Shown here piece after piece: positions 10,832-37,475 of a stretch of DNA of 64,000 nt. Made by a program: the position numbers and the translations under genes. Under the pieces are notes generated by a model that worked only from the letters and a program-made list of their open reading frames with translations, did not search any database and was not told the origin of the DNA. Source of the stretch: an uncultured Gemmatimonadota bacterium (GTDB taxonomy: Bacteria; SM23-81; DAOVCL01); the NCBI GenBank assembly GCA_964626665.1, contig CAZVGK010000007.1, forward strand, positions 1 to 64,000, read 5' to 3'. The number at the start of each line of letters is the position of its first letter. Positions within the stretch are counted from its first letter, which is position 1.

Positions 10832-10857
10832 TTCTCCCTCCTTTCGAACTTAGCCAC

Positions 10858-10993
10858 TTGCGGCGGGGCTTTTCTGACAGGATGAACAGGGCTTACCGGA
10901 TTTTTATTCATCCTGTCCATTTTGTCTATTTGTAAGAGCTGCCAGCCCCGTTCCGACGGGATTCCTGACGGAAGAGGTAACTCCTGACAGCAC
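10858..10993. repeat. Composite ~135-bp repeat, inverted copy at 59364-59496
   Basis: cagccccgttccgacgggattcc and aactcctgacagcac match the reverse complement of 59364-59496. Confidence 0.8.
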
Positions 10994-11006
10994 AATTTGA
11001 AATTTC

Positions 11007-11802
11007 TTAGAAATTTCGAGGGGTCGGCAACAGGGATTTTATCCTTTCCACCGCTAAATTTAAATCCGCTGCGGCCTCCCCCTCACCACTTATATTCAAA
11101 TCAGCAAAACTCTTGGATGGCTCAACGAATCTGAGATGCATAGGCCGCACCGTGGAAAGATACTGTTTGATAACTGAGTCCAGAGTCCTCCCCCTCTCCT
11201 CCATATCCCCCCTCAGCCTTCTGATGAATCTCAGATCTGGGCTTGTCTCCACCCAGATCTTCAGATCCAAAACCTCCCTTAATTCCTGATCTTCCAGGAG
11301 GAGTATCTCCTCCACCGAACTTAGCTCCCTTTAGTCGCTAAGTTCCCATAGGGCCTCACCGGCCCTCTGGCGCTCCGCAATCCTGCGCTCTCGGATTGCT
11401 CCGCTGTCACCCTTGAAGGGGGCATACCCCCTTCAAACTACCCCCAACGGTTCGGAATCTCTAAGAAATTCCGAACCGTACAATCAGATCCCTGGGCCTG
11501 AGTAGTTCCCCGGACTCCTTACGAGTATGGACCCTGCAATCATAGTAGAGTTTGGGAACTGGATTCCCTTGCTTAAGATCCCGCAAGTGCTGGGAGAGCA
11601 GCCGATTTTCAAAGGCAGATGGATGATCGAAGTTGCGTTTTCCCCCCTCCTCTCGGGGAAGGTCCCCCCAGTCCCGATAGTATGTATCCTGGGAGATGAC
11701 CAAGGAGAGTTGCGGGCCTATGGCCTCCACGATTCTTTGGGCTACGGTGGTCTTCCCTGCCCCAGTCCCTCCAGCAATCCCTAAGATCAAGGGAACCATC
11801 AT
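11007..11802 (-). pseudogene. udk: Uridine kinase interrupted by a 163-bp insertion
   Basis: GIAGGTGAGKTT, NFDHPSAF in 5' part; RFIRRL..DMEERGR, VRPMHLRFVEPSK in 3' part; removing 11317-11479 restores DLIVVEEIL in frame. Confidence 0.88.
11317..11479. mobile_element. 163-bp multi-hairpin intragenic element (copy 1)
   Basis: Bounded by terminal hairpins gaacttagc/gctaagttc and acggttcggaat/attccgaaccgt; homologous to 36197-36355; no TSD. Confidence 0.85.
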
Positions 11803-35238: not shown

Positions 35239-36204
35239 TTGCCGCGCATAAGAATAGGTGTAATTGGGGTTGGCCACTTAGGCAAGTATCATCTCCAGAG
35301 GCTTTTAGAGCTTCCCCTAGCCCAGGTGGTGGGCCTCTTTGATAAAGACCAGGCAAAGGGGGAAAGGGTAGCCAAAAGTCTGGGGGTGAGGGCCTGGCCC
35401 CACCTAAGTGACCTCCTCAAGGAGGCAGAGGCCGTAGTGGTTGCTGTCCCCACCAGCTCCCATTACGAGGTAGTTATAGAGGCCCTCTCTCAGGGGCTGG
35501 CGGTCCTGGTGGAGAAACCCCTTGCCGGTAGATTGGATGAGGGGGTGGAGATGGTGAAGATGGCCCAAAGCAAGGGGAAGGTCCTTCAGGTAGGACATAT
35601 AGAGAGGTTCAACCCCGCCTTTACCTCGCTTAGGGGGTTGAAAATTGAGCCCCGGTTTATAGAGGCCCATAGGCTCTCCCCCTTCCACCCGCGGGGAATG
35701 GATGTGGCTGTGGTCTTGGACCTGATGATCCACGACCTGGACCTTGTCCTTGCCCTGGTCAACTCCCCTCTACAGTCCGTGGAGGCTATGGGGGTGGCTG
35801 TGGTCTCTGATCAGGAGGACATCACCAACGCCCGCCTTAGCTTTGAAAACGGCTGTGTGGCCAATCTCACGGCCAGCAGGATATCGGCCAAATCGATGCG
35901 CAAGCTGCGCATTTTCCAGAGGGATTCCTATCTCTCCCTCGATTTTATCCAGAAGAACACAGAGGTATACAGGCTTCTCCCCTCCTCAGGAGGGGTCAAT
36001 GGCGAAAAGATATTTGACCTTGCTGGCCGGTACCTTATCCGCAAACTAATAACCGACAAGGGGGTTGATCCCCTCAAGGAGGAGCTCTCCTCATTCCTCT
36101 CGGCAATAGCAGGCCACCATCCTCCCCCTGTCTCTGGCCAGGAAGGGCTAAAGGCCCTAAGGTTGGCCCTGAGGGTGTTAGAGGCCATAAGATGCAGAAC
36201 TTAG
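35239..36204 (+). CDS. Gfo/Idh/MocA oxidoreductase, possibly GnnA-like
   Basis: IGVIGVGHLG, LVEKP, VGHIERFNPA, VVLDLMIHDLD, ANLTASRIS; coupled to lpxB. Confidence 0.85.
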   Translation: MPRIRIGVIGVGHLGKYHLQRLLELPLAQVVGLFDKDQAKGERVAKSLGVRAWPHLSDLLKEAEAVVVAVPTSSHYEVVIEALSQGLAVLVEKPLAGRLDEGVEMVKMAQSKGKVLQVGHIERFNPAFTSLRGLKIEPRFIEAHRLSPFHPRGMDVAVVLDLMIHDLDLVLALVNSPLQSVEAMGVAVVSDQEDITNARLSFENGCVANLTASRISAKSMRKLRIFQRDSYLSLDFIQKNTEVYRLLPSSGGVNGEKIFDLAGRYLIRKLITDKGVDPLKEELSSFLSAIAGHHPPPVSGQEGLKALRLALRVLEAIRCRT

Positions 36205-37475
36205 CTCGCTTCGCTCGCAAAGTTCTCCATAGGGTCTCACGACCCTTCCCGACCTACAGTCGGGACTCGGATTGCCCATCTGTCACCCTTGAAGGGGGCT
36301 TACCCCCTTCAAACAACCCCCAACCTATCGGAATTTCCAAGAAATCCCGATGGGTCAAGTTAATGGTCCTGGCCGGTGAGGCTTCCGGGGACCTGCATGC
36401 CGCTGGCCTCATCCATCAACTAAAGAAGCTCCTCCCCTCAGTTACCTTCTTCGGAATGGGAGGGGCAAAGATGGAGGAGGAAGGGGTTGAACTTATCTAC
36501 CACCTGCGAGATCTCTCCCTCATTGGGTTTACGGAACCATTGAGGAAGCTCCCCTTCTTTCGGCGGGCAATGGGGAAGATGACCAAGCTCCTCAAGGAGA
36601 GGGAGCCCGATCTGGTAATCCTGGTGGACTACCCTGGTTTCAACCTGAGATTTGCCCGCCAGGTAAAAAAGAGAGGGATTCCCCTTGTCTATTACATCTG
36701 CCCTCAGGTCTGGGCCTGGGGGAGATGGCGGATAAAGAAGATTGCTAAGCTGGTGGATAGGGCCATAGTCTTTTTCCCCTTTGAGCGTAATCTCTATCAA
36801 CGGGCAAAGCTGAGGGCCGATTTTGTCGGCCATCCTCTGATAGAGATTATCAGGGAGGAGCAGAAGGGAGAGGTTTTTCGGCGGCAGATGGGGATAGAAA
36901 AGGGAGAAGAGGTTCTGGGCCTCTTTCCAGGAAGCAGGGAAGGTGAGGTAAGAAGAATCCTTCCCCTGATGCTGCAGGCTTACAGGTTGTTGGCAAAGAA
37001 GGTTAAGATGAGGGCCTTCTTGGCTCTCTCTCCAAATATCCCCCTTGATCTGGTCAAGGGTTATGAGGTGGAGATCCTCCAGGGGAGAAATTATGAGCTT
37101 ATGGCTGGCTCATCTCTGGTCTTAGTGGCCTCAGGAACGGCAACCATAGAGGCCACCATCTTAGGGACGCCAATGCTAATCATCTACCGCATTTCCCCCC
37201 TCTCCTGGCTCTTAGGGAGGTTGCTGGTGAGGCTTCCCTATATAGGGATGGTCAACATATTGGCCGGGAAACAATTGGTCCCTGAGCTCATCCAGAGGAG
37301 GGCAAACCCCCCGCAGATAGCCGCTGCGGCCTGGAGATTGCTGAATGATGAGGGGAGAAGGGAGGAGATGAAGAGGGGATTAGAAAAGGTGAAAAGAGGG
37401 CTGGGAGAGCCAGGTGCCTACCTCAGAGCTGCCCAAATAGTGCACGAGGTCTTCAGGGGTGGCCGGCAAGCTTAG
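36192..37475 (+). CDS. lpxB: Lipid-A-disaccharide synthase with in-frame 53-codon insertion near the start
   Basis: AGEASGDLH, DYPGFN, PQVWAW, FVGHPL, LFPGSR, ASGTAT, PELIQ. Confidence 0.93.
   Translation: MQNLARFARKVLHRVSRPFPTYSRDSDCPSVTLEGGLPPSNNPQPIGISKKSRWVKLMVLAGEASGDLHAAGLIHQLKKLLPSVTFFGMGGAKMEEEGVELIYHLRDLSLIGFTEPLRKLPFFRRAMGKMTKLLKEREPDLVILVDYPGFNLRFARQVKKRGIPLVYYICPQVWAWGRWRIKKIAKLVDRAIVFFPFERNLYQRAKLRADFVGHPLIEIIREEQKGEVFRRQMGIEKGEEVLGLFPGSREGEVRRILPLMLQAYRLLAKKVKMRAFLALSPNIPLDLVKGYEVEILQGRNYELMAGSSLVLVASGTATIEATILGTPMLIIYRISPLSWLLGRLLVRLPYIGMVNILAGKQLVPELIQRRANPPQIAAAAWRLLNDEGRREEMKRGLEKVKRGLGEPGAYLRAAQIVHEVFRGGRQA
36197..36355. mobile_element. 159-bp multi-hairpin intragenic element (copy 2)
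   Basis: Homologous to 11317-11479; removal gives MHKLMVLAGEASGDLH; no TSD. Confidence 0.85.

Follow-up and report, generated by a model that had tools for sequence, protein, structure and literature searches.

A structured, gene-less family of small mobile elements, one copy of which divides the udk gene of an uncultured Gemmatimonadota bacterium

RESULTS

Organization of the udk locus

The stretch of DNA analyzed here (the window; 64,000 nucleotides) belongs to contig 7 of the genome of an uncultured Gemmatimonadota bacterium (G000; 3.17 Mb in 63 contigs, 99.65% complete). At about 11 kb, on the reverse strand, udk is found as two open reading frames separated by an inserted element (Table 1). 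Orthologs were taken from two sister species of the same genus, G001 (an assembly about 90% complete, in 220 contigs) and G002, in both of which udk is uninterrupted (214 and 218 amino acids open, respectively). In a three-way DNA alignment, the G000 gene has exactly 163 additional bases. Read along udk, they separate ...GATTGT from GGTGGAG..., no target base is duplicated at the junction, and in silico removal of the block restores the udk reading ...DLIVVEEILLLED. The initial annotation, which proposed a clean insertion without target duplication at 11317-11479, therefore had both the event and its coordinates right. The plus strand of the element starts GAACTTAGC and finishes CCGAACCGT; the sense strand of udk is the bottom strand of the element.

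Table 1. Features at and around the two element copies of the window (positions are those of the window)
Feature	Position	Strand	Basis and remarks
Second, different small element	10846..11025	+	Starts GAACTTAGCC; H5-like right hairpin; right boundary accurate to ~2 nt
udk, C-terminal half	11007..11315	-	ORF list; open from junction GTG; alignment with orthologs
163-bp element copy in udk	11317..11479	+	Exact extra block relative to G001 and G002 udk; family member
H1, left terminal hairpin	11317..11345	.	GAACTTAGC / GCTAAGTTC, 9-bp stem; fold, pair counts
H2 hairpin	11346..11370	.	CCATAGGGCC...GGCCCTCTGG; fold; contains strongly covarying pair
H3 hairpin	11377..11399	.	GCAATCC / GGATTGC; centroid fold; helix 3 96% paired
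H4 hairpin	11413..11436	.	TTGAAGGGGG / CCCCCTTCAA; fold
H5, right terminal hairpin	11447..11479	.	ACGGTTCGGAAT / ATTCCGAACCGT; flush with element end; fold
udk, N-terminal half	11461..11802	-	ORF list, orthologs; 107 host codons plus 6 element codons, stop within element
Target flank ACAATCAG	11480..11487	+	Host udk sequence, present in empty orthologous sites; weak match to cAAGTTAg
Second family copy, 159 bp	36197..36355	+	9 nt before original stop of upstream Gfo/Idh/MocA-type gene

The 3' end of the gene has been altered as well. A second, different element lies between the start of a radical-SAM gene and udk and replaces the native udk 3' end, so that the last ca. 5 codons and the stop of the C-terminal half are supplied by inserted DNA, and this end diverges from the orthologs. 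That element is recognizable by its GAACTTAG head, its own fold, its high-copy depth, and its joints to H5 in metagenome contigs. A search of G000 gave a single udk match, and the gene is thus single copy. Since the insert breaks the frame of the sole copy and a second element has taken the place of its native 3' end, G000 udk is most simply read as a disrupted salvage gene: the 163-bp copy is an ordinary disruptive insertion that divides it into two open halves. Read in the sense of udk, the H1 loop contains an AAGGGAG stretch 9 nt ahead of the GTG at the junction; judging from the sequence, the C-terminal half could conceivably be translated separately.

The initial annotation had raised the possibility that the udk copy is removed at the DNA or RNA level. 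Intron-like splicing or frequent precise excision would then allow one full-length protein to be made, and a reader might point to the perfect stems retained by this copy, to the open state of both halves (107 and 102 codons), and to the udk dN/dS, which is similar on the G000 (0.25) and G001 (0.23) branches. These ratios, however, are branch-wide and blind to what preceded and what followed the insertion; as a clock, they are uninformative about the time elapsed since, and either the insertion is recent relative to the long G000 branch or some constraint persists. Moreover, the 163 nt are not a multiple of 3 and add a stop after 6 codons, restoring the junction would still leave the native 3' end lost to the second insertion, and Rfam yields no match to a known ribozyme or intron family. 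In contigs from four salt-marsh metagenome DNA runs that contain the studied stretch, the element is entered from both sides without differences, and these contigs (which drop rare variants) show filled junctions and no joint across it. The proposal is unsupported, and we consider removal of the element to be extremely improbable.

The copy upstream of lpxB

Alignment confirmed that 36197-36355 is a homolog of 11317-11479, the two being members of one family, and the ORF lists at both loci bear out the remark that the two copies are oriented oppositely relative to their host genes. The second copy had been described as an insertion into lpxB. It lies instead outside this gene, 9 nt ahead of the original stop of the upstream gene; the lpxB ATG is at 36363 (protein start MVLAGEASGD), and the flank after 36355 reads CAAGTTAA. 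Nor does its removal restore lpxB to MHKLMVLAGEASGD, as had been predicted. Without 36197-36355, it is the upstream Gfo/Idh/MocA-type ORF that is extended, ending ...AIRCTS-TAA in a TAATG stop/start overlap with lpxB, whereas with the element present this ORF stops at a TAG within GAACTTAG. In G001 the same site also holds the element, with stops in the frame initially taken for lpxB and with a different central hairpin, and in G002 it holds a decayed remnant of ca. 95 bp that still begins GAACTTAGCC. No empty lpxB site was found among the three genomes.

Folding and covariation

As single-stranded DNA, the udk copy folds into five stem-loops, the first and last of which are flush with its ends. 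The initial annotation was accurate in equating the ends with terminal hairpins, since in this copy they coincide with hairpin feet (positions 1 to 29 and 131 to 163 of 163). The fold energy is -45.3 kcal/mol, compared with -17.5 ± 2.85 kcal/mol for 200 shuffled sequences (z = -9.75, with none as good), and the opposite strand gives a z of -10.5. H1 and H5 are unrelated in sequence, and terminal inverted repeats are absent.

The stem covariation that had been noticed between the two copies of the window proved to be a property of the family. Across 54 copies from three genomes, 95.9% of stem cells are paired, and 12 of 50 pairs are changed on both sides, compared with 4.0 ± 1.3 in shuffled data; double-changed cells number 66, against 18.4 in the shuffles, and none of 500 shuffles reached any of the observed measures. 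When partner columns are slid by 1 to 3 positions, pairing drops to 26 to 53%, and RNAalifold recovers the helices independently. The structure of the element is maintained by compensatory change. In the stems, single changes of the G-T-compatible and A-C kinds occur at about the same frequency, so these counts do not tell which strand is selected or whether selection acts on DNA or RNA. At the gathering score, Rfam covariance models gave no match in the window, and positions 11250-11550 gave only chance-level scores (E ≥ 2); the idea of a known RNA family was rejected on this basis.

Among the modules, H1 is the most conserved and is the one common to several phyla in our pattern scan. In H2, pair 43:51, to which the initial annotation had drawn attention, is U-A in 25, C-G in 20, and G-C in 5 of the 54 copies, and in H5 seven pairs of helices 6 and 7 have changed on both sides. 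Longer members (variants of ca. 205 to 210 nt) carry nested insertions in the H3 loop. The ttgaaggggg hairpin at the center, which had been called invariant on the evidence of two copies, does not keep this status across the family: its apical part (that of H4) is replaced by other hairpins in some copies, for example, L024, L027, and the G001 ortholog at the lpxB site (labels of the form L0xx denote individual element copies).

Ends and target sites

We mapped the flanks of 28 G001 and G002 copies onto G000. Five identified clean empty sites (L057, L037, L032, L064, and the second L035 copy), three identified shared filled sites (L055, L058, and L069), one (L053) led to a different insert of 283 bp, and the flanks of 19 did not map side by side. 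In each of the five clean pairs, the element starts with GAAC... and ends with ...CGAAAYGT, duplicated bases are absent, and the sequence following its right end is already present in the empty site. With udk included, insertion without target-site duplication was observed in 6 of 6 filled/empty comparisons.

For a flank logo we retained 54 of 64 collected copies, having dropped 6 that were misanchored, 3 orthologous duplicates, and 1 duplicated flank. Fifty of the 54 start with GAAC. The right flank, on the H4-H5 side, follows the pattern c-a-A-g-T-T-A-g, with A in 39 copies at +3, T in 37 at +5, T in 43 at +6, and A in 37 at +7; the left flank is G-poor and C/T-rich from -12 to -5. Flanks with three or fewer mismatches to SAASTTAG account for 29 of the 54 copies, compared with 5.8% of random genome 8-mers. 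An exact CAAG or GAAC forms the first flank tetranucleotide in 12 of the 54 (background, ca. 0.8%), the stronger signal lying at +5 to +7. This cAAGTTAg motif resembles the first eight bases of the element itself, GAACTTAG, and some copies (L034, L050, and C6:98762) sit directly before the GAACTTAG of another element. In most copies the 3' arm of the terminal hairpin agrees more closely with the target consensus than with the arm opposite it in the stem. No covariation between arm and target was seen, and a subfamily whose 3' arm is GCAAAGTTC still prefers CAAGT(C/T)A flanks.

These results bear on a possible relationship to IS110/IS1111 elements, in which the family would be an orphan bridge- or seek-RNA unit, that is, a noncoding module whose RNA guides a DEDD recombinase. 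A conserved structure of ca. 165 nt that inserts without duplication at preferred sites would suit such a unit, two IS110-type genes are present in G000, and a study of ISPpu9 reports modular movement of an IS110-family small-RNA unit (PMC12288879). No core dinucleotide, however, recurs at the two junctions. A comparison of 22 flank positions with the variable element columns by mutual information likewise gave no sign of a programmable guide: in 990 tests there was no convincing pair, and the highest-scoring one (+1 against an H3-loop column) obeys no rule of complementarity. With nhmmer finding no family match near the IS110 genes, and given the empty Rfam result, an origin of this kind appears very unlikely.

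Copy number, genomic context, and distribution

A genome-wide BLAST search, which had been recommended at the outset, did uncover further copies, 32 of them full length in G000. A profile search of the same genome returned 106 matches at E ≤ 0.01 (a number that includes reverse-strand self-matches of the palindromic right end), 45 of them near full length, and none of these ca. 45 copies contains an ORF. Of 41 genomes searched (G000 and 40 relatives), only G000, G001, and G002 were positive, with 0 of the 38 others yielding a match. Copies within G000 are on average 83% identical (maximum, 94.6%); the youngest-looking ones are in G001, where identity reaches 98.8%. Nonorthologous copies from different species are up to 98.2% identical, despite a udk dS of 0.62 between G000 and G001, which suggests that an active lineage has either been kept by selection on the element or been exchanged between species.

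Most of 37 G000 copies that were placed in context are intergenic, and for 23 both neighboring genes are encoded opposite to the plus strand of the element, which often lies 1 to 30 nt upstream of a start codon. For 31 of the 37, the local GC skew (±15 kb) is negative for the plus strand. Taken together, skew and gene orientation imply that the bottom strand is usually the G-rich, gene-sense strand; such a bias fits a strand-specific mechanism, although it is confounded with the direction of transcription. In silico removal left at least 90 open codons on both sides only at udk and at one unverified site, and lengths modulo 3 of 0, 1, and 2 were found in 15, 10, and 12 copies, respectively, with no in-frame bias. 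The initial annotation had likened the element to the Rickettsia palindromic elements, which are read in frame within host proteins. Both are short and palindromic and are able to sit inside protein-coding genes, but the comparison fails where it could be tested, in that the present copies show no frame preference, are mostly intergenic, and in the case of udk break the frame.

The left hairpin is distributed patchily over several phyla. In contigs representing one genome per species, its pattern occurred in 85 stretches, and the 80 matches listed come from at least 18 genome records, which by their titles comprise two Zixibacteria-type MAGs, six Scalindua/Scalinduaceae, one Brocadiaceae, two other Planctomycetota, Candidatus Tritonobacter, two Nitrospirae, a closed Gemmatimonadota chromosome, and one each from Anaerolineaceae, Ignavibacteria, and an unclassified organism. 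Full-length relatives were seen in Gemmatimonadota, Anaerolineaceae, Planctomycetota, and unclassified records. The forms in Scalindua, Nitrospirae, and Tritonobacter share only the terminal hairpin and a related right tip, ...GAATTTCCGA..., beyond which the flank is AA-TTAG-like. A scan of metagenomes for the left hairpin gave at least 121 stretches, of which 78 loci were examined. By regular expression, a right end was found within 420 nt for 36 H1 occurrences, and 21 others that escaped the expression proved, over their first 200 nt, to be small elements of this kind whose right arms vary, or else different mosaics. The metagenome loci examined included no long element, and a scan of viral contigs for the left hairpin gave 0 matches.

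We conclude that this is a real, well-defined family of structured, nonautonomous mobile elements. In the literature searched, including the topics Scalindua/MITE and IS91/MITE, we found no published description of it; terminal words of 12 and 13 letters were absent there, and a 9-letter word was present only by chance. The octamer GAACTTAG occurs 200 times in G000, compared with 14 to 163 times for eight comparison octamers, and it heads at least two other families of small elements in this genome (26 and 7 regular-expression matches, compared with 1 and 0 when the genome is reversed).

Search for a transposase

The initial annotation had recommended a search for a longer parent encoding an enzyme; none with matching ends was found in G000 or at carrier loci. 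The 3.5-kb neighborhoods of left-only and right-only partial copies in G000 share only other small repeats, and 49 ORFs adjoining H1-only copies are ordinary genes. The sole IS91-type gene of G000 (C21:56668-57348) is a truncated, AT-rich sequence found at the end of a contig; it retains the Zn ribbon and HUH motif, lacks the tyrosine region, and has no family sequence in its flanks. Neither Y2_Tnp nor Zn_Tnp_IS91 matched in G001 or G002. Y2_Tnp genes are present in 3 of 5 other carrier genomes, compared with 0 of 14 control genomes, but no H1- or H5-like sequence lies near them, and tblastn of six Y2 proteins against 215 carrier loci (824 kb) gave no match. A Y2-HUH transposase (Y2_Tnp with a Zn ribbon) having the same ends as the element was thus not found in these assemblies, whose draft state may hide one.

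Proteins of the Y1 class are better represented, with eight Y1_Tnp matches in G000, mostly RAYT-like. Each of the seven loci that we inspected is bracketed by different palindromes or repeats of its own, and CTAA[CG]TT[CG] and its complement are absent within ca. 400 nt on each side. A pair of RAYT-like genes beside partial copies on contig 21 was considered as a candidate and rejected, as it is bracketed by a different palindrome and its proximity appears to be incidental. When two Y1 proteins were compared with the 215 carrier loci by tblastn, only three hits were near a copy, one of them a known RAYT and the other two fragments.

One may ask whether the family is a composite repeat of the REP/BIME kind, spread by a single-copy, host-resident RAYT-type or unrecognized nuclease to which the GAACTTAG head would serve as a recognition tag, and thus not descended from an insertion sequence. 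Such a repeat would share with our family its hairpin modules, mosaic composition (modules are swapped among copies), and intergenic location; G000 is dense in hairpin repeat families and holds several RAYT-like genes, at least two further families of small elements there start with the same octamer, and no classical transposase adjoins any copy. The units, however, are ca. 165 bp in length, have sharp ends, and move whole, as clean single-unit insertions into unique sites, unlike REPs of 20 to 40 nt. The GTAG-type head is also absent, and neither H1 nor H5 flanks any RAYT gene of G000. On balance, we hold this explanation to be quite unlikely, since it fails, like the IS110 and Rickettsia comparisons, on defining features.

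Alternatively, the element may be a palindrome-associated element (PATE) of the IS200/IS605 type, moved by a Y1 TnpA through peel-and-paste, with the cAAGTTAg flank acting as the TAM and ...TAAGTTC as the TEM on the bottom strand. Insertion bias toward the lagging-strand template is known for the IS200/IS605 family, and the bias seen here (31 of 37) resembles it; the eight Y1_Tnp matches of G000 would offer a source of enzyme. There is, moreover, no target duplication, and the conserved motif occupies one flank only (TAACTTG-like on the bottom strand) and resembles the opposite terminus of the element. Published passages on PATE-like elements describe this same combination of gene-less, hairpin-ended, duplication-free units with a one-sided flank motif, present in dozens of copies and moved in trans under TAM/TEM logic (PMC10055086). 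The hairpins of the present family nevertheless differ in being terminal and mutually dissimilar; they are flush with the cleavage points and leave no room for guide bases. In the IS608 paradigm, these bases lie 5' of the hairpin foot. The inspected Y1 loci (seven) are bracketed by other repeats and lack the family motif in their ca. 400-nt flanks, Y1 homologs are near just 3 of 215 carrier loci (the RAYT and fragments mentioned above), G000 has no match to the TnpB Zn ribbon, and Rfam gave no match. The search turned up neither a matching Y1 TnpA or TnpB nor a guide-RNA family. We therefore view a PATE origin as unlikely.

DISCUSSION

In our view, the element is probably best explained as a nonautonomous single-strand (HUH-type) transposon with IS91-like end logic that is moved in trans; we would give this reading a probability of about 50%. 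It draws on the existence of ca. 45 near-full-length copies without ORFs, the lack of inverted repeats, six duplication-free insertions, a flank motif that mimics the first eight bases of the element, the strand bias, and an end logic that matches IS91-family rules. Mobilization through a folded single strand, by an HUH/rolling-circle or RNA-based route, had been suggested by the initial annotation, and the ends, targets, and bias now lend the HUH version indirect support. Because the search yielded no transposase whose ends match, the mechanism itself, from the class of enzyme to the single-stranded intermediate and the strand that is active, is something that we infer.

Under such a mechanism, the gene-less unit of ca. 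165 bp would consist of just the two ends required for single-strand transposition by an HUH nuclease acting in trans. Along the bottom strand, an origin-like end carrying palindromes H5 and H4 would adjoin a CTTG-like target motif (here lengthened to TAACTTG), and at the other end palindrome H1 would finish in GTTC at the cleavage point. At the terminus, the nuclease would cleave 3' of ...TAAGTTC; at the origin, it would cleave 3' of the ...TAACTTG-like flank. The bottom strand would presumably be released as a single-stranded circle, to be pasted 3' of another TAACTTG-like site without duplication.

We judged the likeness to IS91 by description, against published end rules. According to the passages on IS91-family ends in one account (PMC13181058), these elements cause no target duplication and insert beside 5'-CTTG or GTTC at the oriIS end; at terIS, one subterminal palindrome adjoins the cleavage site, which reads GTTC (or CTCG), and oriIS has one or two palindromes. 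The same passages state that 89 bp and 82 bp of the ends suffice for movement in trans and that a bottom-strand, single-stranded circle is used. According to a study of IS801, that element begins with GAAC, uses GAAC, GGAC, CAAG, or CGAC as targets, and gives rise to mobile miniature fragments of 229 to 679 nt (PMC3189936). Like IS91, IS801, and IS1294 in these accounts, our family shows no duplication, a GAAC start, and, in a much looser form, a CAAG/GAAC-type flank, and its two ends would be functionally different rather than inverted repeats, with one palindrome at the terminus and one or two at the origin. Read along the bottom strand (CTTG-like flank, H5, H4 ... H2, H1-GTTC), the arrangement fits the IS91 rules in the features compared except for the strictness of the tetranucleotide and, decisively, the transposase. 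The target motif is longer (ca. 8 nt) and its tetranucleotide looser, at 12 of 54 copies compared with the ca. 92% of CTTG or GTTC targets in an IS91 assay table (PMC13181058). Also unlike the IS91 family, no Y2 transposase with the ends of the element was found, and the element constitutes a stable, structured, high-copy (ca. 45 per genome), multiphylum family and not sporadic truncations of a resident IS.

One speculative and, we think, rather unlikely possibility is that the GAACTTAG-headed elements form a multiphylum superfamily of single-strand transposons that carries no genes, has no classical parent IS, and is driven by a nuclease not recognized as a transposase, with pairing between a hairpin 3' arm and the target perhaps helping target choice. 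Its proposed members would be this family, at least two others in G000, and the terminal-hairpin forms of Scalindua and Nitrospirae. The pairing partners would then be the hairpin 3' arm GCTAACTTC and a GAAGTTAG-like target.

Were the IS91-type reading to prove true, it would mean that HUH transposons can yield compact and structured miniature elements that reach high copy numbers and become dispersed across phyla, for which the precedent so far consists only of sporadic IS801 fragments. It would also add a class of bacterial miniature elements that have neither inverted repeats nor target duplications and are missed by standard MITE finders. In addition, its more than 100 diverged copies, bearing compensatory changes, make the family a natural collection of minimal signals for origin and terminus. 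For annotation, the element explains the split udk and the altered gene ends seen in carrier genomes, and it marks a repeat that breaks assemblies.

The same GAACTTAG sequence with which the studied family begins also heads at least two additional families of small elements across the source genome (G000). In genome-wide regular-expression searches of G000, one of these, in which the head runs on into GCGGCGGGGCTTTTCTGACAGGAT, gave 26 matches, and the other, in which it runs on into TATGGGACGCAGAT, gave 7. The shared head sequence suggests that several element families are served by one enzyme.

In the window itself, a second element, different from the studied one and with ends of the same kind, lies at the 3′ end of udk. 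The native end of this gene has been replaced, such that its final codons and stop come from the element, one portion of which (10950-11011) is extremely high-copy among salt-marsh contigs.

Transposase genes and small elements in G000 (C, contig)
Feature	Location	Remarks
RAYT-like Y1 transposase gene, copy 1	C21:25817-26482	221 aa
RAYT-like Y1 transposase gene, copy 2	C21:28857-29522	221 aa
IS91-family transposase gene	C21:56668-57348	truncated; AT-rich; 167 bp from contig end
GAACTTAG-headed elements (example sites)	C14:13810, C18:44853, C26:48064, C6:1177	
Second element	window 10846-11025	~180 bp; start GAACTTAGCC; right hairpin like H5 (right terminal hairpin of studied element); between udk and start of radical-SAM gene

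The two RAYT-like copies are 98.7% identical to one another, and each is flanked on both sides by inverted AAAATAGGGACACTTCCTATTTT palindromes; gene and palindromes together form a REPtron-like unit with no relation to the studied element. The IS91-family gene encodes a Zn ribbon and HUH motif and is without the catalytic tyrosine region. On a metagenome contig, a RAYT-like Y1 gene is represented by an N-terminal fragment (L215:2458-2571) that stops 30 nt before a left-hairpin copy of the studied element, an arrangement that may reflect insertion into a RAYT gene.

At the lpxB site, the copies in the window (36197-36355) and in the same-genus genome G001 (L070) are orthologous and have unlike central hairpin modules: one copy has GGGGGCTTACCCCC, whereas its counterpart has a longer hairpin, TCCGGCACTTATGCATAAGTGCGGGA. 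The difference implies either postinsertion replacement or conversion of modules between copies or that the site received two insertions independently. A further site, which is intergenic, is occupied in G001 by the studied element (L053) and in G000 by a different, 283-bp insert (C27:48774-49057), and looks like an insertion hot spot for two repeat families.
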